This document shows positions 386 through 33,700 of a DNA stretch of 64,000 nucleotides, piece by piece (position 1 is the first letter of the stretch; the number at the start of each line of letters is the position of its first letter). The notes beneath the pieces were generated by a model that was not told where the DNA came from, did not search any database, and saw nothing but the letters and a program-made list of their open reading frames with translations. This DNA is from Heptranchias perlo (taxonomy: Eukaryota), in the NCBI RefSeq assembly GCF_035084215.1, contig NW_027139217.1, forward strand, positions 124,001 through 188,000, given 5' to 3'. The position numbers and the translations under genes were made by a program.

Positions 386-3300
386 GAATTTATTTAATGA
401 TGTAGCTTCCACAGCTTCCTGGGGCAGCAAATTCCACAGACCTACTACCCTCTGAGTGAAGAAGTTTCTCCTTATCTCAGTTTTGAAAGAACAACCCCTT
501 GTTCTAAGATTATGCCCCTAGTTCTAGTTTCACCCATCCTTGGGAACATCCTTACCACATCCACCCGATCAAGCCCCTTCACAATCTTATATGTTTCAAT
601 AAGATCGCCTCTCAATCTTCTGAACTCCAATAAGTGGAGTCCCAATCTACTCAACCTCTCCTCATATGTCCGCCCCCTCATCCCAGGGATTAACCGAGTG
701 AACCTTCTTTGTACTGCCTCGAGAGCAAGTATGTCTTTTCTTAAGTATGGAGACCAAAACTGTATGCAGTATTCCAGGTGCGGTCTCACCAATACCTTAT
801 ATAACTGCAGCAATACCTCCCTGTTTCTTTATTCTATCCCCCAAGCAATAAAAGCCAACATTCCGTTGGCCTTCTTGATCACCTGCTGCACCTGCATACT
901 AACTTTTTGATTTTCTTGCACTAAGACCCCCAGATCCCTTTGTACTGCAGTACTTTCCAGTTTCTCGCCATTAAGATAATAACTTGCTCTCTGATTTTTC
1001 CTGCCAAAGTGCATAACCTCACATTTTCCAATATTGTATTGCATCTGCCAAATCTCCGCCCACTCACCCAGCCTGTCTATATCCCCCTGTAGGTTTTTTA
1101 TGTCCTCCTCACTCTCCACTTTCCCTCCCATCTTTGTATCATCTGCAAACTTTGATATGTTACACTCGGTCACCTCCTCCAAATCGTTAATATAGATTGT
1201 AAAGAGTTGGGGACCCAGCACCGACCCCTGCGGAACACCACTGGCTACTGGTTACCAGTCCGAGGATGAACCATTTATCCCAACTCTCTGCTTCCTGTTA
1301 GATAACCAATCCTCCACCCATGCCAGAATATTACCCCCAATCCAGTGATTCTTTATCTTGAGCAATAATCTTTTATGTGGCACCTTGTCAAATGCCTTCT
1401 GGAAGTCTAAATGCACTACGTCCACTGGTTCCCCTTTATCCACCCTGTACGTTATGTCCTCAAAGAACTCAAGCAAATTTGTCAGACATGACTTCCCCTT
1501 CGTAAAGCCATGCTGACTTTGTCCTATTAAATTATGTTTATCCAAATGTTCCACTACTGTCTCCTTAATAATAGATTCCAAAATGTTACCCACCACAGAT
1601 GTTCGGCTAACTGGTCTGTAATTTCCAGCCTTCTGCCCACTCCCATTTCAAATAAGGGTGTTACATTGGCAGTTTTCCAATCTGCCGGGACCTTTGCCGA
1701 GTCCAGAGAATTTTGGAAAATTATTACCAAAGCATCCACAATCCCTACTGCCACTTCCCTCAAGACCCTAGGATGTAAGCCATCAGGTCCAGGGGATTTA
1801 TCCGCCTTGAGTCCCATTATTTTACTGAGTACCAATTCCTTAGTGATTTTAATCGTATTTAGCTCCTCCCCCCCTAGTGCCCCCTGTTTGTCCAATGTTG
1901 GGATATTCTTAGTGTCCTCTACCGTAAAGACTGAAACAAAATATTTGTTCAGCATTTTTGCCATCTCCATGTTTCCCACCATTAATTTCCCGGTCTCATC
2001 CTCTAAGGGACCTATGTTTGCCTTTGCCACCCTTTTTCTTTTTATATAACTAAAGAAACTCTTGCTATCTGTTTTTATATTTTTTGCTAATTTATTTTCA
2101 TAATCTATCTTCCCTTTCTTAATCAATCCTTTAGTTACTTTTTGCTGTCTTTTGAAGACTTCCCAATCTTCTATCCTCCCACTAAGTTTGGCTACCTTAT
2201 ATGTCCTTGTTTTTAGTCGGATACTATCCTTAATTTCCTTACTTAGCCACGGATGGCTGTCATTTCTTTTACACCCTTTTTTCCTCAGTGGAATATATTC
2301 TTTTTGAAAGTTGTAAAATAACTCCTGAAATGAACACCACTGCTCGTGTACCGTCTTACCCTTTAATCTATTTTCCCAGTCCACTTTAATCAATTCCGCT
2401 CTCATACCATCACAGTCTCCTTTATTCAAGCTCAGTACGCTTGTTTGAGAACCAACCTTCTCACCATCTAATTGGATATGGAATGTAACCATGTTATGGT
2501 CACTCATTCCAAGGGGATCCTTAACTAGGACATTATTAATTAATCCTGGCTCATTACACAGGACCAGGTCCAAGGTTGCTTGCCCCCTTGTAGGATCAGT
2601 TACATACTGCTCAAGAAATCCATCCCTAATACACTCTTCCTCAAGGCTGCCCTGCCCAATTTGATTTGTCCAGTTAATATGATAGTTAAAATCCCCCATA
2701 ATTATAGCTGTTCCCTTATTACATGCCCCGACTATTTCCTGATTAATACTTCTTCCAGCAGAGTTGCAACTATTAGGAGGCCTATATACTACGCCCACGA
2801 GTGTTTTTTCCCCCTTATTATTCCTTATCTCTGCCCAAACTGTTTCATTATCCTGATCCTTTGTCCCAATATCATTTCTCTGTGTTACAGTGATTCATTC
2901 CTTTATTAACAGACCCACCCCACCTCCCCTTCCTTCCTGCCTGTCCTTCCTGATTGTTAAATACCCTGGCATATTTAATTCCCAGTCATTGTCACCCTGC
3001 AGCCATGTTTCTGTAATGGCCACAAGATCATACCCATACGTAGCTATTTGTGCCGTTAACTCGTCCATTTTGTTACGAATGCTACGTGCATTCAGATAAA
3101 GAACTTTCAAATATGTTTTGTGACACTTAGTTCCTGCTTTTTCCTTTTTTAACACTTTACCTTTTACTCCATACCTTCTGTCCCTTCCTGACACGCTTTC
3201 CTCTGTCTCCCTGCTCAGGTTCCCAACCCCCTGCCACAGCTTTGATGCTGGGTTAATCGCCTTACGCCTTCTAGTTTTTATTTTATCTGTCGTGCCTAAT

Positions 3301-3473
3301 GTACACTTTCTTTCCGCTGCTCTACGCTTTTCCCTCTCACTTGTACTTGAACAACTGTTTGTACTATCTGTATTGTAGATTTCCCCTGGGTCTTCCCCTC
3401 TCTTGCTGCTCTCAACTTTATTCCCTTCTGACTCCCCACTCAGGTTCCCGTCCCCCTGCCATTCTAGTTTAAA
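386..3473 (-). pseudogene. CR1 ORF2 (endonuclease-reverse transcriptase), disrupted
   Basis: ORF-track pieces 2895-3194, 1554-2798, 1252-1596, 829-1221 and 472-813 are consecutive parts of one EN-RT protein. Confidence 0.9.
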
Positions 3474-4414
3474 CCTTCCCCAACAGCACTAGCAAACACC
3501 CCCGCGAGGACATTGGTCCCGGTCCTGCTCGGGTGTAACCCGTCACGCTTGTACAGGTCCCACCTTCCCCAGAACTGGTCCCAATGTCCCAGGAATCGAA
3601 ATCACTCCCTCCTACACCATCCCTGCAGCCACGCATTCATCCTGTCTGTTCTCCTGTTCCTATACTCACTAGCACGTGGCACTGGTAGTAATCCTGAGAT
3701 CACTACCTTTGAAGTCCTGCTTTTTAATTTATCTCCTAACTCCTTAAATTCACCTTGCAGGACCTCATCCCTTTTTTTACCTATGTCGTTGGTACCAATA
3801 TGGACAACGACTACTGGCTGTTCACCCTCCCCCTCCAGAATGCCCTGCAGCCGCTCCGTGACATCCTTGACCCGAGCACCAGGGAGGCAACATACCATCC
3901 TGGAGTCACGTTTGCGGCCGCAGAAACACCTATCTGTTCCCCTTACAATTGAATCCCCTATCACTATAGCCCTGCCACTCTTCTTCCTCCCCTCCTGTGG
4001 AGCAGAGCCACCCGTGGTGCCCCGAACCTGGCTCTTGCTGCATTCCCCTGATAAACCATCTCCCCCAACAGTATCTAAAGCAGAATATCTGTTTGAGAGG
4101 GAGATGGCCCCAGGGGACTCCTGCTCTACCTGCCGAGTCCTTTTACTCTGCCTGGCGGTCACCCATTTCCTTTCTGCCTGTGTAATCTTTACCTGCGGTG
4201 TGACCACCTCACTGAACGTGCTATCCATGATAGTCTCAGCATCGCGGATGCTCCACAGTGAATCCACCCGCAGCTCCAGCTCCGAAATGCGGTTAGCCAG
4301 TAGCTGCAGCTGGACACACTTCCTGCACACATGGTCGCCAGGGACACTGGTAGTGTCCATGACTTCCCACATAGTGCAGGAGGAGCATATCACGGGTGCG
4401 AGCTGTGCTGCCAT
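3464..4414 (-). pseudogene. CR1 ORF1 (CxxC..CxxC zinc finger, coiled coil, SGNH esterase)
   Basis: ATG 4414; CSSC/CRKC, VIGDSIVRG, HIGTND; one premature TGA at 3602-3604; frame continues to EGLN-TAG at 3464-3466. Confidence 0.9.
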
Positions 4415-4982: not shown

Positions 4983-6128
4983 ATTCATTAATTGATAATA
5001 GATTCATCAATTGAGATCTGTTTCATTAATTGATATCAGTTTCATCAATTGATATCAGATTCATTAATTGATACCAGATTCATTAATTGATATCAGTTTC
5101 ATTAATTGATATCAGATTCATTAATTGATACCAAATTCATTAATTGAGATCAGTTTCATTAATTGATATCAGATTCATTAATTGATCTCAGATTCATTAA
5201 TTGATATCAGATTCATTAATTGATCTCAGATTCATTAATTGATACCAAATTCATTAATTGAGATCAGTTTCATTAATTGATACCAGATTCATTAATTGAT
5301 ATCAGATTCATTAATTGATACCAGATTCATTAATTGAGATCAGTTTCATTAATTGATACCAGATTCATTAATTGATATCAGTTTCATTAATTGATATCAG
5401 ATTCATTAATTGATACCAGATTCATTAATTGATATCAGTTTCATCAATTGATACCAGATTCATTAATTGATACCAGATTCATTAATTGATATCAGTTTCA
5501 TTAATTGATACCAGATTCATTAATTGAGATCAGTTTCATCAATTGATACCAGATTCATTAATTGATACCAGATTCATTAATTGATCTCAGATTCATTAAT
5601 TGATACCAGATTCATTAATTGAGATCAGTTTCATTAATTGATACCAGATTCATTAATTGATCTCAGATTCATTAATTGATACCAGATTCATTAATTGAGA
5701 TCAGTTTCATTAATTGATACCAGATTCATTAATTGATACCAGATTCATTAATTGAGATCAGTTTCATTAATTGATCTCAGATTCATTAATTGATACCAGA
5801 TTCATTAATTGAGATCAGTTTAATTAATTGATACCAGATTCATTAATTGATACCAGATTCATTAATTGAGATCAGTTTCATCAATTGATATCAGATTCAT
5901 TAATTGATACCAGATTCATTAATTGATATCAGTTTCATTAATTGATATCAGATTCATTAATTGATCTCAGATTCATTAATTGATACCAGATTCATTAATT
6001 GATATCAGTTTCATTAATTGATACCAGATTCATTAATTGATACCAGATTCATTAATTGAGATCAGTTTCATTAATTGATACCAGATTCATTAATTGATCA
6101 GATTCATTAATTGATACCAGATTCATTA
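4983..6128. repeat. AT-rich 19-bp minisatellite (TTCATTAATTGATACCAGA and variants), about 60 copies
   Basis: Visible periodicity; variants GATACCAGA, GATATCAGT, GAGATCAGT, GATCTCAGA. Confidence 0.95.
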
Positions 6129-11934: not shown

Positions 11935-14900
11935 AGGGAGAGACCAGGAGGTACAGTGTTAGCACAGGGACAGAGAGAGGGAGAGACCAGGAGGTACAGT
12001 GTTAGCACAGGGACAGAGAGAGGGAGAGACCAGGAGGTACAGTGTTAGCACAGGGACAGAGAGAGGGAGAGACCAGGAGGTACAGTGTTAGCACAGGGAC
12101 AGAGAGAGGGAGAGACCAGGAGGTACAGTGTTAGCACAGGGACAGAGGGAGGGAGAGACCAGGAGGTACAGTGTTAGCACAGGGACAGAGGGAGGGAGAG
12201 ACCAGGAGGTACAGTGTTAGCACAGGGACAGAGAGAGAGAGAGACCAGGAGGTACAGTGTTAGCACAGGGACAGAGAGAGAGAGAGACCAGGAGGTACAG
12301 TGTTAGCACAGGGACAGAGAGAGAGAGAGACCAGGAGGTACAGTGTTAGCACAGGGACAGAGAGAGGGAGAGACCAGGAGGTACAGTGTTAGCACAGGGA
12401 CAGAGAGAGGGAGAGAGACCAGGAGGTACAGTGTTAGCACAGGGACAGAGAGAGGGAGGGACCAGGAGGTACAGTGTTAGCACAGGGACAGAGAGAGGGA
12501 GAGACCAGGAGGTACAGTGTTAGCACAGGGACAGAGAGAGGGAGAGACCAGGAGGTACAGTGTTAGCACAGGGACAGAGAGAGGGAGAGACCAGGAGGTA
12601 CAGTGTTAGCACAGGGACAGAGAGAGGGAGAGAGACCAGGAGGTACAGTGTTAGCACAGGGACAGAGAGAGGGAGAGACCAGGAGGTACAGTGTTAGCAC
12701 AGGGACAGAGAGAGGGAGAGACCAGGAGGTACAGTGTTAGCACAGGGACAGAGAGAGGGAGAGACCAGGAGGTACAGTGTTAGCACAGGGACAGAGAGAG
12801 GGAGAGAGACCAGGAGGTACAGTGTTAGCACAGGGACAGAGAGAGGGAGAGACCAGGAGGTACAGTGTTAGCACAGGGACAGAGAGAGGGAGGGACCAGG
12901 AGGTACAGTGTTAGCACAGGGACAGAGAGAGGTAGAGACCAGGAGGTACAGTGTTAGCACAGGGACAGAGAGAGGGAGAGACCAGGAGGTACAGTGTTAG
13001 CACAGGGACAGAGAGAGGGAGAGACCAGGAGGTACGGTGTTAGCACAGGGACAGAGAGAGGGAGGGACCAGGAGGTACAGTGTTAGCACAGGGACAGAGA
13101 GAGGGAGAGACCAGGAGGTACAGTGTTAGCACAGGGACAGAGAGAGGGAGAGACCAGGAGGTACAGTGTGAGCACAGGGACAGAGAGAGGGAGAGACCAG
13201 GAGGTACAGTGTTAGCACAGGGACAGAGAGAGGGAGAGACCAGGAGGTACAGTGTTAGCACAGGGACAGAGAGAGGGAGAGACCAGGAGGTACAGTGTTC
13301 GCACAGGGACAGAGAGAGGGAGAGACCAGGAGGTACAGTGTTAGCACAGGGACAGAGAGAGGGAGAGACCAGGAGGTACAGTGTTAGCACAGGGACAGAG
13401 AGAGGGAGAGACCAGGAGGTACAGTGTTAGCACAGGGACAGAGAGAGGGAGAGACCAGGAGGTACAGTGTTAGCACAGGGACAGAGAGAGGGCGAGACCA
13501 GGAGGTACAGTGTTAGCACAGGGACAGAGAGAGGGAGAGACCAGGAGGGACAGTGTTAGCACAGGGACAGAGAGAGGGAGAGACCAGGAGGTACAGTGTT
13601 AGCACAGGGACAGAGGGAGGGAGGGACCAGGAGGTACAGTGTTAGCACAGGGACAGAGAGAGGGAGAGACCAGGAGGTACAGTGTTAGCACAGGGACAGA
13701 GAGAGGGAGAGACCAGGAGGTACAGTGTTAGCACAGGGACAGAGAGAGGGCGAGACCAGGAGGTACAGTGTTCGCACAGGGACAGAGGGAGGGAGAGACC
13801 AGGAGGTACAGTGTGAGCACAGGGACAGAGAGAGCGAGAGACCAGGAGGTACAGTGTTAGCACAGGGACAGAGAGAGGGAGAGACCAGGAGGTACAGTGT
13901 TAGCACAGGGACAGAGAGAGGGAGAGACCAGGAGGTACAGTGTTAGCACAGGGACAGAGAGAGGGAGGGACCAGAGGTACAGTGTTAGCACAGGGACAGA
14001 GAGAGAGAGAGACCAGGAGGTACAGTGTTAGCACAGGGACAGAGAGAGGGAGAGACCAGGAGGTACAGTGTTAGCACAGGGACAGAGAGAGGGAGAGACC
14101 AGGAGGTACAGTGTTAGCACAGGGACAGAGAGAGGGAGAGACCAGGAGGTACAGTGTTAGCACAGGGACAGAGAGAGGGAGGGACCAGGAGGTACAGTGT
14201 TAGCACAGGGACAGAGAGAGAGAGAGACCAGGAGGTACAGTGTTAGCACAGGGACAGAGAGAGGGAGAGACCAGGAGGTACAGTGTTAGCACAGGGACAG
14301 AGAGAGGGAGAGAGACCAGGAGGTACAGTGTTAGCACAGGGACAGAGAGAGGGAGGGACCAGGAGGTACAGTGTTAGCACAGGGACAGAGAGAGGGAGAG
14401 ACCAGGAGGTACAGTGTGAGCACAGGGACAGAGAGAGGGAGAGAGACCAGGAGGTACAGTGTTAGCACAGGGACAGAGAGAGAGAGAGACCAGGAGGTAC
14501 AGTGTTAGCACAGGGACAGAGAGAGGGAGAGACCAGGAGGTACAGTGTTAGCACAGGGACAGAGAGAGGGAGAGACCAGGAGGTACAGTGTTAGCACAGG
14601 GACAGAGAGAGGGAGAGACCAGGAGGTACAGTGTTAGCACAGGGACAGAGAGAGGGAGAGACCAGGAGGTACAGTGTTAGCACAGGGACAGAGAGAGGGA
14701 GAGACCAGGAGGTACAGTGTTAGCACAGGGACAGAGAGAGGGAGAGACCAGGAGGTACAGTGTTAGCACAGGGACAGAGAGAGGGAGAGAGACCAGGAGG
14801 TACAGTGTTAGCACAGGGACAGAGAGAGGGAGAGACCAGGAGGTACAGTGTTAGCACAGGGACAGAGAGAGGGAGGGACCAGGAGGTACAGTGTTAGCAC

Positions 14901-15555
14901 AGGGACAGAGAGAGGGAGAGACCAGGAGGTACAGTGTTAGCACAGGGACAGAGAGAGGGAGAGACCAGGAGGTACAGTGTTAGCACAGGGACAGAGAGAG
15001 GGAGAGACCAGGAGGTACGGTGTTAGCACAGGGACAGAGAGAGGGAGGGACCAGGAGGTACAGTGTTAGCACAGGGACAGAGAGAGGGAGAGACCAGGAG
15101 GTACAGTGTTAGCACAGGGACAGAGAGAGGGAGAGACCAGGAGGTACAGTGTGAGCACAGGGACAGAGAGAGGGAGAGACCAGGAGGTACAGTGTTAGCA
15201 CAGGGACAGAGAGAGGGAGAGACCAGGAGGTACAGTGTTAGCACAGGGACAGAGAGAGGGAGAGACCAGGAGGTACAGTGTTAGCACAGGGACAGAGAGA
15301 GGGAGAGACCAGGAGGTACAGTGTTAGCACAGGGACAGAGAGAGGGAGAGACCAGGAGGTACAGTGTTAGCACAGGGACAGAGAGAGGGAGAGACCAGGA
15401 GGTACAGTGTTAGCACAGGGACAGAGAGAGGGAGAGACCAGGAGGTACAGTGTTAGCACAGGGACAGAGAGAGGGAGGGACCAGGAGGTACAGTGTTAGC
15501 ACAGGGACAGAGAGAGGGAGAGACCAGGAGGTACAGTGTTAGCACAGGGACAGAG
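11935..15555. repeat. 43-bp minisatellite, about 84 copies, between promoter and start codon
   Basis: Unit AGACCAGGAGGTACAGTGTTAGCACAGGGACAGAGAGAGGGAG, highly homogeneous. Confidence 0.97.
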
Positions 15556-15620
15556 GAGACCGTCTCCTGGAAAAGGATTTCCCACAAACTGCTCATCCCA
15601 GCCTGTCGAGGGAAGCAGCA

Positions 15621-15669
15621 ATGATTGGACTGATAGTTCTGGTCGTTCTGTGTGGAGGGGTCTCTGCAG
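15621..15669 (+). CDS. MHC class I exon 1, signal peptide MIGLIVLVVLCGGVSA
   Basis: ATG 15621, hydrophobic core, CAG/GTGAGT donor, phase 1 matches exon 2. Confidence 0.9.
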
Positions 15670-18600
15670 GTGAGTAATGGGGTCTGAGAGGGGCTCAGTG
15701 CCAGGCTGGGTATTGGGGCATTAACCCTCGGTCAGTGGGTAATGGGGTCTGAGAGGGGCTCAGTGCCAGGCTGGGTATTGGGGCATTAACCCTCGGTCAG
15801 TGGGTAATGGGGTCTGAGAGGGGCTCAGTGCCAGGCTGGGTATTGGGACATTAACCCTCGGTCAGTGGGTAATGGGGTCTGAGAGGGGCTCAGTGCCAGG
15901 CTGGGTATTGGGGCATTAACCCTCGGTCAGTGGGTAATGGGGTCTGAGAGGGGCTCAGTGCCAGGCTGGGTATTGGGGCATTAACCCTCGGTCAGTGGGT
16001 AATGGGGTCTGAGAGGGGCTCAGTGCCAGGCTGGGTATTGGGGCATTAACCCTCGGTCAGTGAGTAATGGGGTCTGAGAGGGGCTCAGTGCCAGGCTGGG
16101 TATTGGGGCATTAACCCTCGGTCAGTGGGTAATGGGGTCTGAGAGGGGCTCAGTGCCAGGCTGGGTATTGGGGCATTAACCCTCGGTCAGTGGGTAATGG
16201 GGTCTGAGAGGGGCTCAGTGCCAGGCTGGGTATTGGGGCATTAACCCTCGGTCAGTGGGTAATGGGGTCTGAGAGGGGCTCAGTGCCAGGCTGGGTATTG
16301 GGGCATTAACCCTCGGTCAGTGGGAAATGGGGTCTGAGAGGGGCTCAGTGCCAGGCTGGGTATTGGAGAGAGAGAGACCATGATTGAAGGGGTGCTGGAA
16401 ACAGTGTGATAGAGGGAGAGACCATGGGGTGGAGTGAGGAATGGGGGGACACGGACACACGCAGCACAACTCCATTTTCCCCCTTTGCTCCATATCCCTT
16501 GATGTCCTGACCCAACAAAAATCGATCAATCTCAGTTTTGAAAGCTCCAACGAACCCCCAGAATGCTCAGCCTTTTGGGGGAGAGAGTTCCAGATTCCCA
16601 CCACCCTTTGTGTGAAGAAATGCTTCCTGGTTTCACCCCTGAACGGCCTGGCTCGAATTTGAAGATTCCGTCCTCTTGTTCTTGTCTCCCCGACTAGACG
16701 AAGTAGTTTCTCCGTATCTACCCTATCAAATCCTTTTAACATTTTAAACACCCTCGATCAGATCACCCCTCAATCTTCTAAACTCGAGGGAATACAAGCC
16801 TCGTCTGTACAACCTGTCCTCGTAATTTAACCCTTTTAGCCCCGGGATCATTCTGGTGAATCTGGGCTGCACCCCCTCCAAGGCCAATCTATCCTTCCTG
16901 AGGTGCGGTGCCCAGAACTGAACACGGTCTCCAGATGTGGTCTGACCAGAGCTCTGCACAGCTGGAACATAACTTCCTCCCCTTTGTATTCCAGCCCCCG
17001 AGATAAAGGCCAACGTTCCATTAGCCTTTCCCAATCCTTTTTGTATCTCTCCACTGGCTTTTAATGATTTCTGTACTTGGACTCCCAAATCTCTCTGTTC
17101 CTCTCCAGTTCCTAGTTTCTCACCGTGTAGAAAATACTCTGATTTATCTTTCTTCGGTCTAAAGTCGATGACCTCACACTTTCCCACATTGAACTCCATC
17201 TGCCACAGTTTTGCCCACTCACTTAATCTGTCTCTGTCCCTTCACAACTCCCTGCTCCCGTCTACACTATTTCCTGTCCCTCCTAATTTAGTGTCGTCAG
17301 CAAACCCAGGCCCCTCTCCCTCAGTCTGTCAGGGGGTGTGTTACCCCAGGCCCCTCTCCCTCAGTCTGTCAGTGGGTGTGTTACCCCAGGCCCCTCTCCC
17401 TCAGTCTGTCAGGGGGTGTGTTACCCAAGGCCCCTCTCCCTCAGTCCCTGTCAGGGGGTGTGTTACCCCAGGCCCCTCTCCCTCAGTCTGTCAGTGGGTG
17501 TGTTACCCCAGGCCCCTCTCCCTCAGTCTGTCAGGGGGTGTGTTACCCCAGGCCCTTCTCCCTCAGTCCCTCAGTGGGTGTGTTACCCCAGGCCCATCTC
17601 CCTCAGTCTGTCAGTGGGTGTGTTACCCCAGGCCCCTCTCCCTCAGTCCCTCAGTGGGTGTGTTACCCCAGGCCCCTCTCCCTCAGTCTGTCAGTGGGTG
17701 TGTTACCCCAGGCCCCTCTCCCTCAGTCTGTCAGGGGGTGTGTTACCCCAGGCCCCTCTCGCTCAGTCTGTCAGTGGGTGTGTTACCCCAGGCCCCTCTC
17801 CCTCAGTCTGTCAGTGGGTGTGTTACCCCAGGCCCCTCTCCCTCAGTCTGTCAGTGGGTGTGTTACCCCAGGTACCACTCCCTCAGTCTGTCAGGGGGTG
17901 TGTTACCCCCGGCCCCTCTCCCTCAGTCTGTCAGGGGGTGTGATACCCCAGGCCCCTCTCCCTCAGCCTGTGTTGTGTTGATGTGGAGATGCCGGTGATG
18001 GACTGGGGTTGACAATTGTAAACAATTTTACAACACCAAGTTATAGTCCAGCAATTTTATTTTAAATTCACAAGCTTTCGGAGACTTCCTCCTTCCTCAG
18101 GTAAATGTTCAGGGACTCTGTGTTGTGTTGGGGATTATTTACAGGGAGTCTGTGTTATTTTGTTGGTTCATGCCCTGATCTCTCTCTCTCTCTCTCTCTG
18201 GGGTTGGTGTTTTGGGGTTGGTGTTTTGGGGTTCATGCCCTGATCTCTCTCTCTCTGGGGTTGGTGTTTTGGGGTTCATGCCCTGATCTCTCTCTCTCTC
18301 TGGGGTTGGTGTTTTGGGGTTCATGCCCTGATCTCTCTCTCTCTCTGGTGTTGGTGTTTTGGGGTTCATGCCCTGATCTCTCTCTGGGGTTGGTGTTTTG
18401 GGGTTCATGCCCTGATCTCTCTCTCTGGGGTTGGTGTTTTGGGGTTCATGCCCTGATCTCTCTCTCTCTGGGGTTGGTGTTTTGGGGTTCATGCCCTGAT
18501 CTCTCTCTCTCTGGGGTTGGTGTTTTGGGGTTCATGCCCTGATCTCTCTCTCTCTGGGGTTGGTGTTTTGGGGTTCATGCCCTGATCTCTCTCTCTCTGG

Positions 18601-21600
18601 GGTTGGTGTTTTGGGGTTCATGCCCTGATCTCTCTCTCTCTGGGGTTGGTGTTTTGGGGTTCATGCCCTGATCTCTCTCTCTCTCTGGGGTTGGTGTTTT
18701 GGGGTTCATGCCCTGATCTCTCTCTCTCTGGGGTTGGTGTTTTGGGGTTCATGCCCTGATCTCTCTCTCTGGGGTTGGTGTTTTGGGGTTCATGCCCTGA
18801 TCTCTCTCTCTCTGGGGTTGGTGTTTTGGGGTTCATGCCCTGATCTCTCTCTCTGGGGTTGGTGTTTTGGGGTTCATGCCCTGATCTCTCTCTCTCTCTG
18901 GGGTTGGTGTTTTGGGGTTCATGCCCTGATCTCTCTCTCTCTCTGGGGTTGGTGTTTTGGGGTTCATGCCCTGATCTCTCTCTCTCTGGGGTTGGTGTTT
19001 TGGGGTTCATGCCCTGATCTCTCTCTCTCTGTGTTTCAGGCTCTCACTCTCTCCGGTATTTTCTGACCGCAATGACCCCGATCCCTGGTCTGCCGCAGTT
19101 TGTTGCTGTCGGGTATGTGGACGAGGCCCAGTTTGTGATGTACGACAGCGAGCGGAGGGAGTTGATCCCACGGCGGTCCTGGATGGAGGAGAGGGAGGGG
19201 CCCGAGAACTGGGAGCGGAAGAAACAGCTGGTGCGAGGCGAGGAACAGTGGATGAAGGATTATATTCAGATCCTCCTGACCCGGACCAACCAGTCGGTCG
19301 GTGAGTTCACTCCCTCCCAACGCACTCGGGCTCTTCCTGCGGAGTCAGGGGGCGGAGAGCGGGGTCAGGGAGCGGGGAGCGGGGAGCGGGGTCAGGGAGC
19401 GGGGTCAGGGAGCGGGGAGCGGGGTCAGGGAGCGGGGAGCGGGGTCAGGGAGCGGGGAGCGGGGTCAGGGAGCGGGGAGCGGGGTCAGGGAGCGTGTCGG
19501 GGAGCAGGGTCGGGGCGGGGAGCGGGGTCAGGGGTCGTGGTCGGGGAGCGGGGTCGGGGCGGGGTCAGGGGTCAGGGAGCTGGGGCGGGGAGATGGGTCG
19601 GGGAGTGGGGTCGGGGTGGGGAGCGGCGTCAGGGGGCGGGGAGTGGGGTCAGGGGGCATGGAGTGGGGTCAGGGAGTGAGGTCAGGGGCAGGGAGCGGGG
19701 TCAGGGAGCGGGGTCAGGGGGCGGGTAGTGGGTCAGGGAGCGAGGTCAGGGTGCAGGGAGCGAGGTCAGGGGGCAGGGAGCGGGGTCAGGGGGCGGGGAG
19801 TGGGGTCAGGGGGCATGGAGCGGGGTCAGGGAGCGAGGTCAGGGGGCAGGGAGCGGGGTCAGGGGGCAGGGAGCGGGGTCAGGGGGCGGGGCCAGGGGTT
19901 GACATGCGATATTCTGACGGTCATGGACTCGGACCAACCAGTCGGGCGGTGAGTCCTCGGCCTCAAACCGCACTCGGGCTGATCCCGGGGTCAGGAGTGG
20001 GCAGGGCTGCTCCCCCTGGAAGTGAGGAAGTTCCACCCCCTCCCCCACTGTGTGACATAAGAACATAAGAAATAGGAGCAGGAGTAGGCCATCCGGCCCC
20101 TCGAGCCTGCTCCGCCATTCATAGAATCATAGAATTATAGAATCGTAGAAAATTTATGGCACAGAAGGAGGCCATTCGACCCATCGTGTCCGTGCCGGCC
20201 AAAAATGTGCCACCCAGCCTAATCCCACTTTCCAGCACTTGGTCCGTAGCCCTGTAGGTTATGGCACTTCAGGAGCACATCCAGGTACTTTTTAAATGAG
20301 TTGAGGGTTTCTGCCTCTCCCACCCTCTCAGGCGGTGAGTTCCAGACCCCCACCACCCTCTGGGTGAAAAAAATTCACCTCAGCTCCCCTCTAATCCTTC
20401 TACCAATTACTTTAAATCCATGCCCCCTGGGCATTGACCTCTCTGCTAAGGGAAATAGGTCCTTGCCCCTCATAATTTTATACACCGGGGAACATAGGAA
20501 CATAGGAACAGGAGTAGGCCATTCAGCCCCTCGAGCCTGCTCCACCATTTGATAAGATCATGGCTGATCTGTGATCTCACTCCATATACCTGCCTTTGGC
20601 CCATATCCCTTAATACCTTTGGTTGCCAAAAAGCTATCCATCTCAGATTTAAAATTAGCAATTGAGCTAGTATCAATTGCCGTTTGCAGAAGAGAGTTCC
20701 AAACTTCTACCACCCTTTGTGTGTAGAAATGTTTTCTAATCTCACTCCTGAAAGGTCTGGCTCTAATTTTTAGACTGTGCCCCCTACTCCTAGAATCCCC
20801 AACCAGCGGAAATAGTTTCTCTCTATCCACCCTATCTGTTCCTTTTAATATCTTATAAACTTCGATCAGATCACCCCTTAACCTTCGAAACTCTAGAGAA
20901 TACAACCCCAATTTGTGTAATCTCTCCTCGTAACTTAACCCTTGAAGTCCGGGTATCATTCTAGTAAACCTACGCTGCACTCCCTCCAAGGCCAATATGT
21001 CCTTCCGAAGGTGCGGTGCCCAGAACTGCTCACAGTACCTCAATTAAATCTCCCCTCAGCCTCCTTTGTTCAAAAGAAAACAACCCCAGCCCATCCAATC
21101 TTTCCTCAGAGCTAAAATTCTCCAGTCCTGGCAACATCCTCGCAAATCTCCTCTGTACCCTCTCTAGTGCAATCACATCTTTCCTGTAATGTGGTGACCA
21201 GAACTGTACACAGTACTCAAGCTGTGGCCTAACCAATGTTTTATACAGTTCCAGCATAACCTCCCTGCACTTATATTCGATGCCTTGGCCTAATAAAGGA
21301 AAGTATTCCATCTGCCTTCTTAACCACCTTATCTGTCCTACTACCTCGGGGATCTGTGGACATGCACTCCAAGGTCCCTCTGTTCCTCGACACCTCTCAG
21401 TATCCTCCCATTTATTGTGTGCTCCCTTGCCTTGTTTGCCCTCCCCAAAGGCACTACCTCACACTTCTCTGGATTGAATTCCATTTGTCACTTTTCTGCC
21501 CACCTGACCAGTCCATTGATATCTTCCTGCAGTCTACAGCTTTCCTCCTCACTAGCAACCACACGGCCAATTTTTGTATCATCTGCAAACTTCTTAATCA

Positions 21601-24600
21601 TGGCCCTACATTTAAGTCCAAATCATTAATATATATCAAAAAAAGCAAGAGACCCAGTATTGAGCCTTGTGGAACCCCACTGGAAACAGCCTTCCAGTCA
21701 CAAAAACACCCGTCGACCATTTCCCTTTGCTTCCTGCCACTGAGCCAATTTTGGATACAATTTGCCACTTTCCCTTGGATCCCATGAGCTTGTACTTTTT
21801 TGACCAGTCTGCCATGTGGGACCTTGTCAAAAGCCTTGCTAAAATCCATGTATTCTACATCAAACGCACTACCCTCATCGACCCTCCTTGTTACCTCCTC
21901 AAAAAATTCAATCAAGTTGGTCAGACATGACCTTCCCTTAACAAATCCATGCTGACTGTCCTTGATTAACCCGTGCCTTTCTAAGTGACGGTTTATCCTG
22001 TCCCTCACAATTGATACCAATAATTTGCCCACCACTGAGGTTAGACTGACTGGCCTATAATTACTCGGTCTCTCTCTTTCTCCCTTTTTAAACAACAGTA
22101 GAACGTTAGCAGTCCTCCAATCCTCTGGCATCACGCCTGTATCCAGGGAGGATTGGAAAATGATGGTCAGAGCCTCCGCTATTTCCTCTCTTGCTTCTTT
22201 TAACAACCTGGGATACATTTCATCCGGGCCTGGTGATTTGTTTACTTTCAAAGATGCTAATCCCCTTAATATTTCCTCTCTCACTGTTTATCCCATCCAA
22301 TATTTCACACTCCTCCTCCTTAACTACAATCTCTGCATCGTCCCTCTCCTTTGTGAAGACAGACGCAAAGTATTCATTAAGAACCAAACCCACATCTTCC
22401 ACCTCCACACACAGGTTACCTTTTTGGTCTCAATCAGATCATGACTGATCTTCGACCTCAACTCCACTTTGCCGCCCGATCCCCATATCCCTTGTTTCCA
22501 TCCCAGCCTCGAATATATTCAATGACTGACCATCCACAGCTCTCTGGGGGAGAGAATTCCAAAGATTCACAGCCCTCTGAGTGAAGAAATTCCTCCTCAT
22601 CTCAGTCTTGAATGGCCGACCCTAAATCCTGCGACAATGCCCCCGAGTTCTAGACTCTCACAGGGGGAAACAATCTCTCAGCATCGACACTGTCAAACTC
22701 CCTCTACTCCCCACCCCCCCCGCAGCCCGTGTCTCTCTATTCCCCCTGTGTCTCTCTATTCCCCCCCGTGTCTCTCTATTCCCCCCCCGTGTCTCTCTAT
22801 TCCCCCCCCGTGTCTCTCTATTCCCCCCCCGTGTCTCTCTATTCCCCCCCCCCGTGTCTCTCTATTCCCCCCCCCGTGTCTCTCTGTTCCCCCCCGTGTC
22901 TCTCTGTTCCCCCCCGTGTCTCTCTATTCCCCCCGTGTCTCTCTATTCCCCCCCCGTGTCTCTCTATTCCCCCCCCCGTGTCTCTCTATTCCCCCCGTGT
23001 CTCTCTATTCCCCCCCGTGTCTCTCTATTCCCCCCCCGTGTCTCTCTATTCCCCCCCGTGTCTCTCTATTCCCCCCCCGTGTCTCTCTATTCCCCCCCCC
23101 CGTGTCTCTCTATTCCCCCCCCCGTGTCTCTCTATTCCCCCCCCCGTGTCTCTCTATTCCCCCCCCCGTGTCTCTCTATTCCCCCCCCCGTGTCTCTCTA
23201 TTCCCCCCGTGTCTCTCTATTCCCCCCCGTGTCTCTCTATTCCCCCCCCGTGTCTCTCTATTCCCCCCGTGTCTCTCTATTCCCCCCCCGTGTCTCTCTA
23301 TTCCCCCCCCGTGTCTCTCTATTCCCCCCGTGTCTCTCTATTCCCCCCCGTGTCTCTCTATTCCCCCCCCGTGTCTCTCTATTCCCCCCCGTGTCTCTCT
23401 ATTCCCCCCGTGTCTCTCTATTCCCCCCCCGTGTCTCTCTATTCCCCCCCCGTGTCTCTCTATTCCCCCCCCGTGTCTCTCTATTCCCCCCCCCGTGTCT
23501 CTCTATTCCCCCCCCCGTGTCTCTCTATTCCCCCCCCCGTGTCTCTCTATTCCCCCCCCCGTGTCTCTCTATTCCCCCCCCGTGTCTCTCTATTCCCCCC
23601 CCCGTGTCTCTCTATTTCCCCCCCCCCCCGTGTCTCTCTATTTCCCCCCCCCGTGTCTCTCTATTTCCCCCCCCCGTGTCTCTCTATTTCCCCCCCCCCC
23701 GTGTCTCTCTATTCCCCCCCCGTGTCTCTCTATTCCCCCCCCCCGTGTCTCTCTATTCCCCCCCCCGTGTCTCTCTATTCCCCCCCCTTGTCTCTCTATT
23801 CCCCCCCCGTGTCTCTCTATTTCCCCCCCCCCCCGTGTCTCTCTATTTCCCCCCCCCGTGTCTCTCTATTTCCCCCCCCCGTGTCTCTCTATTTCCCCCC
23901 CCCCCGTGTCTCTCTATTCCCCCCCCGTGTCTCTCTATTCCCCCCCCCCGTGTCTCTCTATTCCCCCCCCGTGTCTCTCTATTCCCCCCCGTGTCTCTCT
24001 ATTCCCCCCCCCCGTGTCTCTAATTCCCCCCCCGTGTCTCTCTATTCCCCCCCCGTGTCTCTCTATTCCCCCACCCCGTGAAGTTAAGAAACACTTCGAC
24101 ACTCAAAGGGTGGGAGAAGTTTGGAAACTCTCCTCCGCAAATGGCAGTTGGTGCGAGCTCAATTCGTAATTTTAAATCTGAGATTGATAGATTTTTGTTC
24201 ACCAAAGATATTAAGGGATGTGGGGCTAAGGCGGGGATATGGACTCAGGTCACAGATCAGCCATGATCTCATCGAATGGCGGAACAGGCTCGAGGGGCCA
24301 AATGGCCTCGTCCTGTTCCTTTGTTCCTGTAATAAAGTTTCAATACTCTACAGGGAGCGGGCTGGTTTAGTTGACAGGCAACAGCAAGGGCACTGGCGAA
24401 GTGGCAGGGATGGGACAGGAGTGCTGTCATCCTGAGAGTGGACACTCGGTTCATGTTCCATGGAGCCACTGCCACTTGTTGTCTCCTGTTATGCACCACC
24501 TTCTCCTGCAAGAAAGCGGGACGTGTGTCGGTGAGTGTCCTGCAAGATGTTTGGGTGATGAGCCTGTCATGGTTGAATAGCTAGTGCGTGTGGCCTGTGA

Positions 24601-30600: not shown

Positions 30601-30736
30601 TCATTGCCCCTGTTTCTGGAGTAAGTTTGTGTCGGCGAGGGGCTGTGCTGATCGAGGAGCTGTTTGTAACTGAAGTTCCGTCTGTTTCTGTCTCTTGTAG
30701 GAGGAGAGAAAAAATCTGGTTACAGCCCAGCAAATC
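15621..30736 (+). CDS. MHC class I alpha chain, cartilaginous-fish UAA-like; 6 exons visible, 3' end outside window: join(15621..15669,19040..19300,27073..27345,28861..29136,29914..30039,30701..30736)
   Basis: All GT-AG phase-1 introns; 1021 nt spliced open frame; GSHSLRYF start, NQS glycosylation site at 86, C101-C164, Ig C1 alpha3, TM, GYSPA tail motif. Confidence 0.95.
15670..16365. repeat. 65-bp minisatellite starting exactly at the intron 1 donor, about 10.7 copies
   Basis: Units start at 15670, 15735, 15800 and so on; GTGAGT in copies 1 and 7 (16060), GTGGG in the others. Confidence 0.95.
16465..17304 (-). mobile_element. CR1 ORF2 3' fragment in intron 1
   Basis: FADD remnant, MEFNVGKCEV, QFWAPHLRKD, FFTQRVVGIWNSLP, with frameshifts. 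Confidence 0.9.
17305..17968. repeat. 40-bp minisatellite (CCCAGGCCCCTCTCCCTCAGTCTGTCAGTGGGTGTGTTAC), about 16 copies
   Basis: Direct reading. Confidence 0.95.
17979..18107 (-). mobile_element. Penelope-like element terminal fragment
   Basis: GATGTGGAGATGCCGG..GGACTGGGG..ACAACACCAAG..AGTCCA..AGCTTTCGGAG..CCTTCCTCAGG layout plus the hammerhead motif typical of Penelope terminal repeats. Confidence 0.6.
18066..18106 (-). ncRNA. Minimal type I hammerhead ribozyme-like motif
   Basis: Minus strand AUUUAC-CUGAGGA-A-GGAG(GAAGU)CUCC-GAAA-GC-UU-GUGAAU: stem I 6 bp, stem II 4 bp, palindromic AGCU in place of stem III. Confidence 0.6.
18165..19030. repeat. ~41-bp minisatellite GGGGTTGGTGTTTTGGGGTTCATGCCCTGAT(CT)n, about 21 copies, ending at the exon 2 acceptor
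   Basis: The last unit runs directly into GTGTTTCAG/exon 2. Confidence 0.95.
19040..19300 (+). CDS. MHC class I exon 2, alpha1 domain
   Basis: GSHSLRYFLTAMTPIPGLPQFVAVGYVDEAQFVMYDSERRELIPRRSWMEEREGPENWERKKQLVRGEEQWMKDYIQILLTRTNQSV; 261 nt. Confidence 0.97.
19345..19893. repeat. G-rich degenerate repeat (GGGAGCGGGGTCA-type)
   Basis: Direct reading; dense GGGG runs. Confidence 0.9.
19908..20008 (+). pseudogene. Relic 3' end of a second alpha1 exon plus the start of its intron 2
   Basis: GAT ATT CTG ACG GTC ATG (G) ACT CGG ACC AAC CAG TCG GGC G/GTGAGT, then CGCACTCGGGCT as found after the real exon 2. Confidence 0.85.
20054..22705 (-). mobile_element. Three nested CR1 insertions: A (20054-20120 and 22431-22705) contains B (20121-20487 and 21037-22430), which contains C (20489-21036)
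   Basis: Three separate CR1 tails (ACATAAGA, ATCATAGA, ACATAGGA types); the interrupted halves join into continuous CR1 sequence; RT ORF 21598-22284. Confidence 0.82.
22727..24075. repeat. C-rich ~21-bp minisatellite GTGTCTCTCTATT(C)6-11, about 60 copies
   Basis: Direct reading. Confidence 0.96.
24078..24330 (+). mobile_element. CR1 3' end fragment
   Basis: EVKKHF.TQRV.EVW..NFKSEIDRFL, 3'UTR ending CCTGTTCCTTTGTTCC. Confidence 0.85.
24380..24990 (-). mobile_element. Relic Myb/SANT-like gene of a PIF/Harbinger DNA transposon (two exons)
   Basis: RAPRFSDDAREALVQEVDRRRDILYP..EVNA..RTWTQCRKKFNAL..VVK/GTGAGT, then TTGCAG/EKVVHNRRQ; frameshift and stop present; element ends not identified. Confidence 0.7.
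25611..26929. repeat. ~31-bp minisatellite GGGGTCCGGGGGTCCTTTAAATACACTGATC, about 40 copies
   Basis: Direct reading; ends ~140 nt upstream of exon 3. Confidence 0.95.
27073..27345 (+). CDS. MHC class I exon 3, alpha2 domain
   Basis: GIHMIQQMTGCD..YAWDGEDFI..ITKNKW..YLEGECIEWLRKYLEYG; 273 nt; ACAG acceptor and GTGAGT donor. Confidence 0.97.
27346..28654. repeat. ~25-bp minisatellite GTGAGTGAGGGGGGAGTGAGAGTCG starting at the intron 3 donor, about 50 copies
   Basis: Most units recreate CG/GTGAGT. Confidence 0.95.
28658..28821. repeat. 41-bp repeat, 4 copies, just upstream of the exon 4 acceptor
   Basis: GGGGTCTAATCCCCAGTTTAAAGGGGTTTGTCCCGTTCCCT. Confidence 0.95.
28861..29136 (+). CDS. MHC class I exon 4, alpha3 Ig C1 domain
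   Basis: VTPQVF..LSCLVTGFYPRDI..ILPNHDGTYQ..YSCQVDHSS..W; 276 nt. Confidence 0.97.
29205..29390 (-). mobile_element. Small CR1 RT fragment in intron 4
   Basis: Minus strand ISKFAAD..WADTWQMKFNTEKCEVM. Confidence 0.75.
29675..29745 (-). mobile_element. Probable L2/SINE 3' tail fragment
   Basis: CAACAACTTGTATTTATAAAGTGCCTTT..AAACGTCCCAAAGTGCTT is the reverse complement of a typical L2-type terminus; recognised from memory. Confidence 0.45.
29914..30039 (+). CDS. MHC class I exon 5, connecting peptide and transmembrane segment
   Basis: DGTFRVTPGSSEGPNLGLIVGIVLAAVVLIALVIGAVVWKKR; pyrimidine tract with CAG acceptor, GTAGGA donor. Confidence 0.93.
30172..30530. repeat. 28-bp palindrome-rich minisatellite CCGTACGGGGAGTGAAGGGACCGGGGCC, about 12 copies
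   Basis: Direct reading. Confidence 0.95.
30701..30736 (+). CDS. MHC class I exon 6, cytoplasmic GGEKKSGYSPAN
   Basis: TCTCTTGTAG acceptor, GTAAGT donor, 36 nt, phase 1, YxxA motif as in class I tails. Confidence 0.88.
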
Positions 30737-30759
30737 GTAAGTGTGCAAATAGTGCAAGG

Positions 30760-33700
30760 GTGGGTGTGTCTGTGGGTGTCTCTGTCTGTCTGTGTGTGTC
30801 TCTGTCTGTGTGCGTCTCTGTGTGTGTCTCTCTGTGCATCTTTATCGATGTGTGTGTGTGTGTCCCTCTCTCTCTCTCTCTGAGTGTGTGTCTCTCTCTG
30901 TGTGTCTCTCTCTCTCTCTCTGAGTGTGTGTCTCTTTGTGCCTCTCTCTCTCTTTGTGCCCCTCTCTCTCTGCGTGCGCCTCTCTTTCTCTCTGTGTGCC
31001 TCTCTCTCTCTCTGCGTGCGCCTCTCTTTCTCTCTGTGTGCGCCTCTCTTTCTCTCTGTGTGTGTCTCTCTCTCTCTCTGAGTGTGTGTCTCTTTGTGCC
31101 TCTCTCTCTCTTTGTGCCCCTCTCTCTCTGCGTGCGCCTCTCTTTCTCTCTGTGTGCCTCTCTCTCTCTCTGCGTGCGCCTCTCTTTCTCTCTGTGTGCG
31201 CCTCTCTTTCTCTCTGTGTGTGTCTCTCTCTCTCTCTGAGTGTGTGTCTCTTTGTGCCTCTCTCTCTCTTTGTGCCCCTCTCTCTCTGCGTGCGCCTCTC
31301 TTTCTCTCTGCGTGCGCCTCTCTCTCTCTCTCTGTGTGCGCCTCTCTCTCTCTCTGTGTCCGCCTCTCTTTCTCTCTGTGTGTGCCTCTCTTTCTCTCTG
31401 TGTGCGCCTCTCTTTCTCTCTGTGTGCGCCTCTCTCTCTCTCTGTGTCCGCCTCTCTTTCTCTCTGTGTGTGCCTCTCTTTCTCTCTGCGTGCGCCTCTC
31501 TTTCTCTCTGTGTGCGCCTCTCTTTCTCTCTGTGTGCGCCTCTCTCTCTCTCTCTGTGTCCGCCTCTCTCTCTCTCTGTGTCCGCCTCTCTTTCTCTCTG
31601 TGTGTGCCTCTCTTTCTCTCTGTGTGTGCCTCTCTCTCTCTTTGTGCCCCTCTCTCTCTGCGTGCGCCTCTCTCTCTCTCTGCGTGCCCCTCTCTCTCTG
31701 CGTGCGCCTCTCTCTCTCTCTGCGTGCGCCTCTCTCTCTCTCTGCGTGCGCCTCTCTCTCTCTCTGTGTGCGCCTCTCTCTGTGTGTGCGCCTCTCTTTC
31801 TCTCTGTGTGCGCCTCTCTCTCTCTCTGTGTGCGCCTCTCTCTCTCTCTGTGTGCGCCTCTCTCTCTCTCTGTGTGCGCCTCTCTCTCTCTCTGTGTGCG
31901 CCTCTCTCTCTGTGTGCGCCTCTCTCTCCCTCTGCGTGCGCCTCTCTCTCTCTCTGTATGCGCCTCTCTCTCTCTCTCTGTGTGCGCCTCTCTTTCTCTC
32001 TGTGTGCGCCTCTCTTTCTCTCTGTGTGCGCCTCTCTCTCTCTCTGTGTGCGCCTCTCTTTCTCTCTGTGTGCGCCTCTCTTTCTCTCTGTGTGCCCCTC
32101 TCTTTCTCTCTGTGTGCCCCTCTCTCTCTGTGTGCGCCTCTCTCTCTCTCTGTGTGCGCCTCTCTTTCTCTGTGTGCGCCTCTCTTTCCCTCTGTGTGCG
32201 CCTCTCTCTCTCTTTGTGCCCCTCTCTTTCCCTCTGTGTGCGCCTCTCTCTCTCTGCGTGCGCCTCTTTCTCTGTGTGCGCCTCTCTCTCTCTGTGTGCG
32301 CCTCTCTTTCCCTCTGTGTGCGCCTCTCTCTCTCTTTGTGCCCCTCTCTTTCCCTCTGTGTGCGCCTCTCTCTCTCTGCGTGCGCCTCTTTCTCTGTGTG
32401 CGCCTCTCTCTCTCTGCGTGCGCCTCTCTTTCCCTCTGTGTGCGCCTCTCTCTCTCTCTGCGTGCGCCTCTCTCTCTCTCTGTGTGCGCCTCTCTTTCTC
32501 TCTGTGTGCGCCTCTCTTTCTCTCTGCGTGCGCCTCTCTCTCTCTCTGTGTGCGCCTCTCTCTCTCTCTGTGTGCGCCTCTCTCTCTCTCTGTGTGCGCC
32601 TCTCTCTCTCTCTCTGTGTGCGCCTCTCTCTCTCTCTGTGTGCGCCTCTCTTTCTCTCTGTGTGCGCCTCTCTCTCTCTCTGTGTGCGCCTCTCTCTCTC
32701 TCTGTGTGCGCCTCTCTCTCTCTCTGCGTGCGCCTCTCTTTCTCTCTGCGTGCGCCTCTCTCTCTCTCTCTGCGTGCGCCTCTCTCTCTGCGTGCGCCTC
32801 TCTTTCTCTCTGTGTGCGCCTCTCTCTCTCTCTGCGTGCGCCTCTCTCTCTCTCTGCGCGCGCCTCTCTTTCTCTCTGTGTGCGCCTCTCTTTCTCTCTG
32901 TGTGCGCCTCTCTCTCGCTCTGCGCGCGCCTCTCTTTCTCTCTGTGTGCGCCTCTCTCTCTCTCTGCGCGCGCCTCTCTTTCTCTCTGTGTGCGCCTCTC
33001 TCTCTCTCTGTGTGCGCCTCTCTTTCTCTCTGCGTGCGCCTCTCTCTCTCTCTGCGTGCGCCTTTCTTTCTCTCTGTGTGCGCCTCTCTCTCTCTCTGCG
33101 TGCGCCTCTCTTTCTCTCTGCGTGCGCCTCTCTCTTTCTCTCTGCGTGCGCCTCTCTCTCTCTCTGCGTGCGCCTCTCTCTTTCTCTCTGTGTGCGCCTC
33201 TCTCTCTCTCTGCGTGCGCCTCTCTTTCTCTCTGCGTGCGCCTCTCTCTCTCTCTGTGTGCGCCTCTCTCTCTCTGCGCGCGCCTTTCTTTCTCTCTGTG
33301 TGTGCCTCTCTTTCTCTCTGTGTGCGCCTCTCTCTCTCTCTGCGTGCGCCTCTCTCTCTCTGTGTGCGCCTCTCTTTCTCTCTGCGCGCGCCTCTCTTTC
33401 TCTCTGCGTGCGCCTCTCTTTGTCTCTGCGTGCGCCTCTCTTTGTCTCTGTGTGCCCCTCTCTCTCTCTGTGCGCCTCTCTTTCTCTGCGTGCGCCTCTC
33501 TCTCTCTGTGTGCGCCTCTCTCTCTCTCTGTGTGCGCCTCTCTTTCTCTCTGCTTGTGCCTCTCTCTCTCTGTGTGCGCCTCTCTCTCTGTGTGCGCCTC
33601 TCTCTCTCTGCGTGTGCGTCTCTCTCTCTCTGTGTGCGCCTCTCTTTCTCTCTGTGTGCGCCTCTCTTTCTCTCTGTGTGCGCCTCTCTTTCCCTCTGTG

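Follow-up and report, generated by a model that had tools for sequence, protein, structure and literature searches.

How does a CR1 retrotransposon translate its reverse transcriptase (RT) when the open reading frame that encodes it, ORF2, opens without an AUG ahead of the first enzymatic domain? CR1 is described in PMC13343379 as the dominant retrotransposon of most vertebrates, and ORF2 translation in two-ORF long interspersed nuclear elements (LINEs) is called an open question in PMC3894237. The question is raised here by a stretch of 64,000 nucleotides (nt) from the shark Heptranchias perlo (assembly GCF_035084215.1, contig NW_027139217.1, positions 124,001 to 188,000; hereafter "the window"), in which the CR1 element E1 lies on the minus strand and ends its ORF1 on a slippery heptamer. 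Programmed -1 frameshifting, which probably yields a rare ORF1-ORF2 fusion at the CR1 junction, is the best-supported explanation, because heptamers covary in distant families, ORF1 residues covary with them, and the linker between the two domains shows coding constraint.

The CR1 junction in the window and in relatives

The final codons of E1 ORF1 are GGT TTA AAC TAG, so that U_UUA_AAC stands in phase before the UAG, as the first-pass annotation had read it. The -1 frame is free of stops from 22 nt upstream of the ORF1 stop to position 2895; it reads FKLEWQ at the site, continues to the endonuclease motif YLNARS (3098-3081), and has its first in-frame ATG at 3068 (RNKM), within the endonuclease domain (Pfam PF03372), which agrees with what had first been noticed there. 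ORF1 carries an N-terminal CX2CX16CX2C motif and an SGNH esterase that matches PF13472 and, by profile, the ZfL2-1 esterase 4c1b (E 2.5e-46). Its closest named proteins come from sharks and rays, with 84-87% to those of Pristiophorus japonicus. PF03372 and PF14529 matches occur in both E1 and a second element, E2, and PF00078 in E2, while the RT region of E1 was found by tblastn. The E1 copy is decayed, with a TGA at 3604-3602 within ORF1 and stops and frame breaks in ORF2; at position 3604, about 99% of the depth in sequencing run X1 carries a base different from that of the window.

An 11-mer spanning the heptamer occurs exactly three times in the window (3465-3475 minus, 35756-35766 plus, 56312-56322 plus) against 0.14 expected. 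The two plus-strand occurrences lie in E2 and E3, which had been offered as a different CR1 family with the same heptamer. The heptamers are indeed present and in phase at 35758 and 56314, but they do not count as independent cases. E2 and E3 differ at 2 positions over 3720 bases and represent one observation, because they are copies of a single duplication (offset 20,556 nt; ~34500-38840 and 55056-59396) that contains the 5'-truncated CR1. E1 and E2 in turn share 82.9% identity across 709 nt (3400-4106 versus 35125-35833), from ORF1 to about 65 nt beyond the site, with a crossover some 60-65 nt downstream of the heptamer; their RT regions are 64.5% identical. The comparison suggests that two ORF2 lineages carry a common ORF1 module, which agrees with the exchange of ORF1 between CR1 lineages described in PMC4120745. 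Since 125 of 173 same-residue codons are identical between E1 and E2, the chance of three identical codons is 0.38, and the window alone does not demonstrate constraint; the heptamer common to E1 and E2 was rejected as independent evidence on account of this figure and of the shared ORF1 module. A second copy of the block that follows the E1 heptamer lies further along in the ORF2 frame (Table 1), and may be the relic of an older junction that was stranded by an ORF1 swap and whose own heptamer decayed.

The preference of the first-pass annotation for programmed -1 frameshifting over reinitiation is upheld, but by evidence from outside the window. DNA of relatives was fetched with an esterase-core pattern that does not overlap the junction. 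Among the 48 loci returned, 23 were chance matches without an esterase reading, 10 were set aside (7 stop short of the junction and 3 are decayed; L008 is both), and 15 were scored. An in-phase canonical heptamer lies in the ORF1/-1 frame overlap (7-52 codons) of all six loci that carry the endonuclease in the -1 frame, namely E1, E2, L022, L032, L033 and L036. Across these six there are four kinds of heptamer: U_UUA_AAC, G_GGA_AAC, A_AAA_AAC and A_AAU_UUU, of which G_GGA_AAC and A_AAA_AAC had been predicted from protein tails before the relatives' DNA was fetched. ORF1 ends G GGA AAC TAG in L032 and also in L021, whose contig stops before the endonuclease and which is therefore outside the count of six. 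In L022 and L033 the sequence A AAA AAC lies 40 nt upstream of the stop, the -1 frame opens 9 nt earlier, and this frame contains no Met up to the endonuclease motif. The distant element L036 has A AAU UUU; its contig is filed under a bacterial (Saccharicrinis) metagenome-assembled genome, and protein P0011 is labelled Pseudomonas aeruginosa, but both are a eukaryotic LINE and thus likely contamination.

The background is six in-phase canonical heptamers per 3034 upstream codons. From this, our own arithmetic gives a chance of 1.4-10% per locus and of about 6e-6 for four distinct kinds, a figure that is too optimistic, since two of the ten in-frame control loci have an in-phase C_CCA_AAC before the stop (the -1 frame there shuts within 41 nt) and the background near the C-terminus is thus above the estimate. 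An endonuclease tree, built without a named reference set for the CR1 clade, places L022, L032 and L033 with E1, E2 and the ray and stork proteins (Shimodaira-Hasegawa-like approximate likelihood ratio support, 95), apart from the L2-type loci. No true relative was found among the viral contigs searched.

Protein tails and variation in the linker

Protein searches gave 231 relatives of ORF1, 136 of them with a scorable tail; a search with the N-terminal part of ORF1 gave four matches only. The tail ends in N in 100 of the 136 (84 LN, 9 GN, 2 KN and 5 other). The two commonest tails make different demands on the codon ahead of them: U_UUA_AAC requires a U-ending codon before L, and G_GGA_AAC a G-ending codon before G. 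The residue before LN is one with pyrimidine-ending codons only (NNY) in 27 proteins and with purine-ending codons only (NNR) in 1, as against 0 and 8 before GN (Fisher p 3e-7). After dereplication at 65% the NNY-only and NNR-only counts are 12 and 0 of 27 for LN and 0 and 7 of 8 for GN (p 2e-5). NNR-only residues occupy positions -4 and -5 in 38 and 30 of 84 tails, so purine-only residues are otherwise common near the tail.

These counts bear on an explanation by protein constraint only, in which ORF1p needs a C-terminal L-N, TTA AAC is simply inherited, and ORF2p is made from an internal start or a shorter transcript. LN does lie where the last helix region of the esterase ends, and the sharing between E1 and E2 is within chance, as given above. 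However, the third base of the preceding codon follows the heptamer class, fish L2 esterases end differently, and the tails switch among LN, GN and KN many times. On an esterase tree of 85 rows, from which the tail was excluded, the forced changes number at least 7 for LN, at least 6 for GN and 3 for KN (starred branches), with tail labels that are noisy in that a few are wrong, where the rule picked up an earlier LN. Such repeated interchange implies that LN is not a fixed requirement of the protein. Variation in the linker, set out next, leaves little room for a later start, and constraint on the protein alone is accordingly a very improbable account of the junction.

Variation within the family was read from run X1, of which 20,938 contigs aligned; the variant results rest on 40 of 226 variant rows. 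(In the other runs, X21 gave 14 reads, X11 53 contigs, and X22 none that aligned.) Nine linker variants are among the rows listed. Eight of them change the third base of a -1 frame codon (p ~0.001) and seven are synonymous; for these same nine listed variants the third-position share in the other two frames is 1/9 and 0/9, and none of the nine creates an in-frame ATG. The first, at 3462 (46% of depth), is in the first post-stop codon, with which synonymous variation of the -1 frame begins, and abolishes an out-of-frame AUG. Third-position variation of this kind indicates that the linker evolves as protein, even though it lies upstream of any in-frame AUG. Among the listed ORF1 variants, 15 of 31 are at third positions of frame 0 (p 0.06). 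The lack of any variant in 3463-3475 among the 40 of 226 rows has about even odds over 751 nt and was not used.

F-K-L is read at the junction by four database proteins that span it in the ORF2 frame, two from a stingray, one from a stork and one unnamed. Joining at the RNA level, in which a small splice, editing or polymerase slippage would bring ORF2 in frame with ORF1, has nothing direct in its favour: fused gene models do exist, but they can stem from single-base indels in decayed copies or from repairs made in annotation. The coding sequence of each frame runs across the site without a gap, U_UUA_AAC has no long homopolymer, and a joined RNA would be recopied to DNA and spread as a fused family, while only six longer proteins were found; joining of the RNA is the most improbable of the explanations considered. 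Tails of other kinds were seen as well: SFF, WGF, TFL, SFL, VNF and AGF (P0095, P0150, P0171, P0172, P0181 and P0199), which, from the protein alone, suit other heptamers, e.g., U_UUU_UUA, G_GGU_UUU and A_AAU_UUU.

Proposed slippage or restart at the ORF1 stop

In the mechanism proposed, the Leu and Asn tRNAs would slip in tandem on U_UUA_AAC, and a minority of ribosomes would move back one base and continue into ORF2, which would lengthen ORF1p, while most would terminate at the UAG that abuts the heptamer, so that their ORF1p is set free. In the rare fusion, endonuclease and RT would be carried on the ORF1 protein, somewhat as in Gag-Pol but without a protease. The pause may come from the adjacent stop together with a G-rich tract 7-9 nt beyond it, and not from a pseudoknot, and the efficiency of frameshifting might well be low. 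A bare or weakly stimulated site may do, given the view that a small number of ORF2p molecules is enough (PMC3894237).

The heptamer site works like a viral -1 frameshift site, but departs from the canonical kind in its lack of a predicted downstream structure. The first-pass annotation had proposed that the downstream segment be folded; no stable 3' structure is predicted within 50-120 nt at E1 or five other loci (z -1.7 to +1.0), with folding that did not model pseudoknots and downstream stretches that are purine-rich and offer few possible stems. L022 alone shows a hairpin, and this without a spacer. Each of the 4 junctions whose stop abuts the heptamer has a paired G-tract 7-9 nt past that stop, where 0.02-0.05 would be expected per 35 nt, a pattern that was defined after the data were seen. 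The G-tract could act as RNA, or it could reflect a Gly-x-Gly peptide.

The lack of a stable 3' structure weighs against frameshifting, and several further points do so too. A two-tier G-quadruplex is predicted in E1 only, and there is neither a common distant pairing partner nor a notable Rfam match. An in-frame AUG precedes the endonuclease in three of the six loci (E2, as part of UAAUG, L032 and L036), L036 is remote and possibly not a CR1 element, and the vertebrate junctions examined as DNA are two only. Proteins P0232, P0233 and P0235 have a Met in the linker. Among the tails, 36 of 136 do not end in N, although some of these are L2-type or broken. A test of the tail window for tripeptides that would suit a heptamer gave 0.87 against a background of up to 0.79, no separation, and is uninformative, which suits protein constraint as well. 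The two in-frame control loci with C_CCA_AAC, described above, belong here also. Run X1 is possibly the window's own source, and its 40 of 226 rows do not establish an invariant heptamer for the family.

Termination followed by reinitiation, with restart near the ORF1 stop in the ORF2 frame at an AUG or near-cognate codon and the heptamer as a by-product, is the rival with most in its support. The second family in the window has a feature that the first-pass annotation overlooked: in E2 and E3 a UAAUG stop-start in the ORF2 frame directly follows the heptamer, so that frameshifting and reinitiation could both serve in this family, and what had been taken as support for the former suits the latter. 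L032 has an in-frame AUG 16 nt before the stop, plus two later ones, L036 also has an AUG, and a CUG lies at 3443 within the E1 linker. According to PMC5972666 and PMC3894237, reinitiation is used by SART1 and LINE-1, and a tethered restart accepts non-AUG codons. Against this, the stretch from heptamer to endonuclease motif is without an in-frame AUG in three of the six loci (E1, L022 and L033), and UAAUG is found in 1 of 7 loci (E2/E3) and not in E1. A conserved in-frame AUG, which the first-pass annotation had named as a sign against frameshifting, is not what the junctions show: six of vertebrate type have E, M, D, N, D and G at that codon, the M being that of E2. In L022 and L033 the heptamer precedes the stop by 40 nt, and no AUG is in frame. 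Four loci contain a UGGGA, whose nearest occurrence lies 96-108 nt upstream (96 in E1 and E2) and codes for Trp-Asp or similar, as compared with about 45 nt for the termination upstream ribosome-binding site (TURBS) of influenza B; no stable downstream fold such as that of SART1 is predicted in the 6 loci. Reinitiation also leaves the four kinds of in-phase heptamer and the covariation of residues unexplained. As the sole route to ORF2 it is unlikely, while in E2, L032 and L036 it may operate in parallel with frameshifting.

Neighbouring features, known systems and significance

The positions of the features discussed are collected in Table 1.

Table 1. Features of the CR1 junctions, in window coordinates unless a locus is named
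Feature	Position	Strand	Remarks
E1 ORF1	4414 (ATG) to 3464	minus	zinc-finger-like N-terminus and SGNH esterase; C-terminus GEGLN-stop
E1 slippery heptamer U_UUA_AAC	3473-3467	minus	in phase with ORF1 (X XXY YYZ)
E1 ORF1 stop UAG	3466-3464	minus	abuts heptamer
E1 paired G-tract, candidate stimulator	3447-3456	minus	7 nt past the stop
E1 linker without AUG, heptamer to endonuclease motif	3473-3099	minus	-1 frame, ~125 codons
Repeat of post-heptamer block	3214-3245	minus	in ORF2 frame; 30/35 nt identical; preceding sequence non-slippery
E1 ORF2 remnant (APE endonuclease and RT)	386-3110	minus	stops and frame changes; 3' tail absent
E2 ORF1 fragment, 5'-truncated	35126-35767	plus	esterase; C-terminus GEGLN-TAA
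E2 heptamer U_UUA_AAC, then UAAUG stop-start	35758-35764; 35765-35769	plus	AUG at 35767, ORF2 frame
E2 ORF2 (endonuclease, RT)	35758-38835	plus	frame break near 36560-36600
E2 octamer tail, presumably CR1-type	~38808-38835	plus	
E3 heptamer and UAAUG	56314-56325	plus	UAAUG 56321-56325, ATG at 56323; duplicate of E2
UGA-C loci L007, L009, L010, L011, L014, L017, L020, L023, L030, L031	ORF1 stop		

The octamer tail of E2 is putatively CR1-type, and E1 is without its 3' end. The frame break in E2 ORF2 is due to a short direct duplication (~36560-36640) in the interval between endonuclease and RT, which is also present in E3. Both elements sit within very long C/T-rich arrays nearly without A on the plus strand (~30,700-35,100, 38,840-55,700 and 59,400-64,000). 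Further tandem repeats lie elsewhere in the window, as do several CR1 fragments that consist of RT alone and lack the junction (~5000-5200, 12000-16000 and 16500-22700).

A different arrangement is found at fish-L2-like esterase loci, where C stands after the UGA stop of ORF1 in 10 of 10. In nine of these ORF2 runs on in frame 0 up to the endonuclease motif (one contig ends early), with no Met before the motif in six of the nine, and the loci fall within one well-supported clade of the esterase tree (8 of 10 placed). UGA-C at these stops is thus a candidate for stop-codon readthrough. Kajikawa et al. are said to have proposed in 2012 that suppression of the ORF1 stop serves ORF2 of ZfL2-1, which would likewise give a fusion and with which UGA-C agrees. 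ZfL2-1, of the L2 clade, has a homologous esterase ORF1 (4c1b), but L2-type elements place ORF2 in frame 0 behind UGA-C, whereas CR1 has it in the -1 frame. With UGA-C in L2-type loci and -1 heptamers in CR1, related LINEs would arrive at the same kind of fusion through two forms of recoding.

Slippery sites of the form X_XXY_YYZ are familiar from viruses, including U_UUA_AAC of coronaviruses, A_AAA_AAC of astroviruses, and the heptamer followed by a stop in Rous sarcoma virus (RSV). The CR1 junction resembles them in heptamer rule, phase and gene order (a structural or RNA-binding protein, then the polymerase); it differs in that no pseudoknot or strong hairpin is predicted 5-9 nt downstream, in having no protease or capsid, and in belonging to a nuclear non-long terminal repeat element. 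SART1 shares the UAAUG pentanucleotide, an arrangement also found in influenza B, with E2/E3, but it makes separate proteins, and UAAUG is not present in E1 or five other -1-type loci. Overlapping ORFs are also known from Dictyostelium TRE5-A and TRE3-A, for which a figure legend of the review PMC5911963 states that a -1 frameshift is needed for ORF2; these elements belong to the L1 clade and have another ORF1, and PMC5633606 mentions overlapping ORFs only. For Paramecium elements, +1 frameshifting, reinitiation or readthrough was suggested (PMC5405496).

Canonical CR1 LINEs, termed type IVB in PMC4120745 and Canonical-CR1 in PMC13343379, have the ORF1 with zinc-finger-like motif and esterase and the apurinic/apyrimidinic endonuclease (APE) and RT of ORF2; E2 has a putative octamer tail besides. 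The recoding signal is what is new here: the main texts of both papers are without the terms "frameshift", "overlap" and "stop codon". Full-text searches found no description of CR1 frameshifting, with the primary CR1 papers outside their reach, so that an earlier proposal is possible. The 2016 review of frameshifting (PMC5009743) does not contain "CR1" in the first 300,000 of its 449,034 characters, and the available parts of PMC2734521, PMC11835228, PMC11203168, PMC13405545, PMC4176376 and PMC3905857 hold nothing on the subject. The junction sequence does not occur in the accessible supplement of PMC2734521, and that of PMC4316615 matches only in the ORF2 3' end.

For esterase-ORF1 LINEs as a group, a wider picture can be drawn, to which we give about equal weight for and against. 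CR1 elements of sharks, frogs, birds and distant hosts would fuse ORF1 and ORF2 by a -1 slip on interchangeable heptamers, with the adjacent stop and G-tract in place of a pseudoknot, and fish L2 elements would do so by UGA-C readthrough; the signal would move with a swapped ORF1 module and decay if left behind. If frameshifting does operate at these junctions, the start of CR1 ORF2p would be redefined, and in E1, L022 and L033 an annotation starting from the first Met would truncate the endonuclease. An RT tethered to a membrane-binding esterase is then predicted, and CR1 would contribute natural cellular -1 frameshift sites in very large number, without an evident pseudoknot. The "slip" at the end of ORF1 would explain how CR1 elements make their reverse transcriptase.

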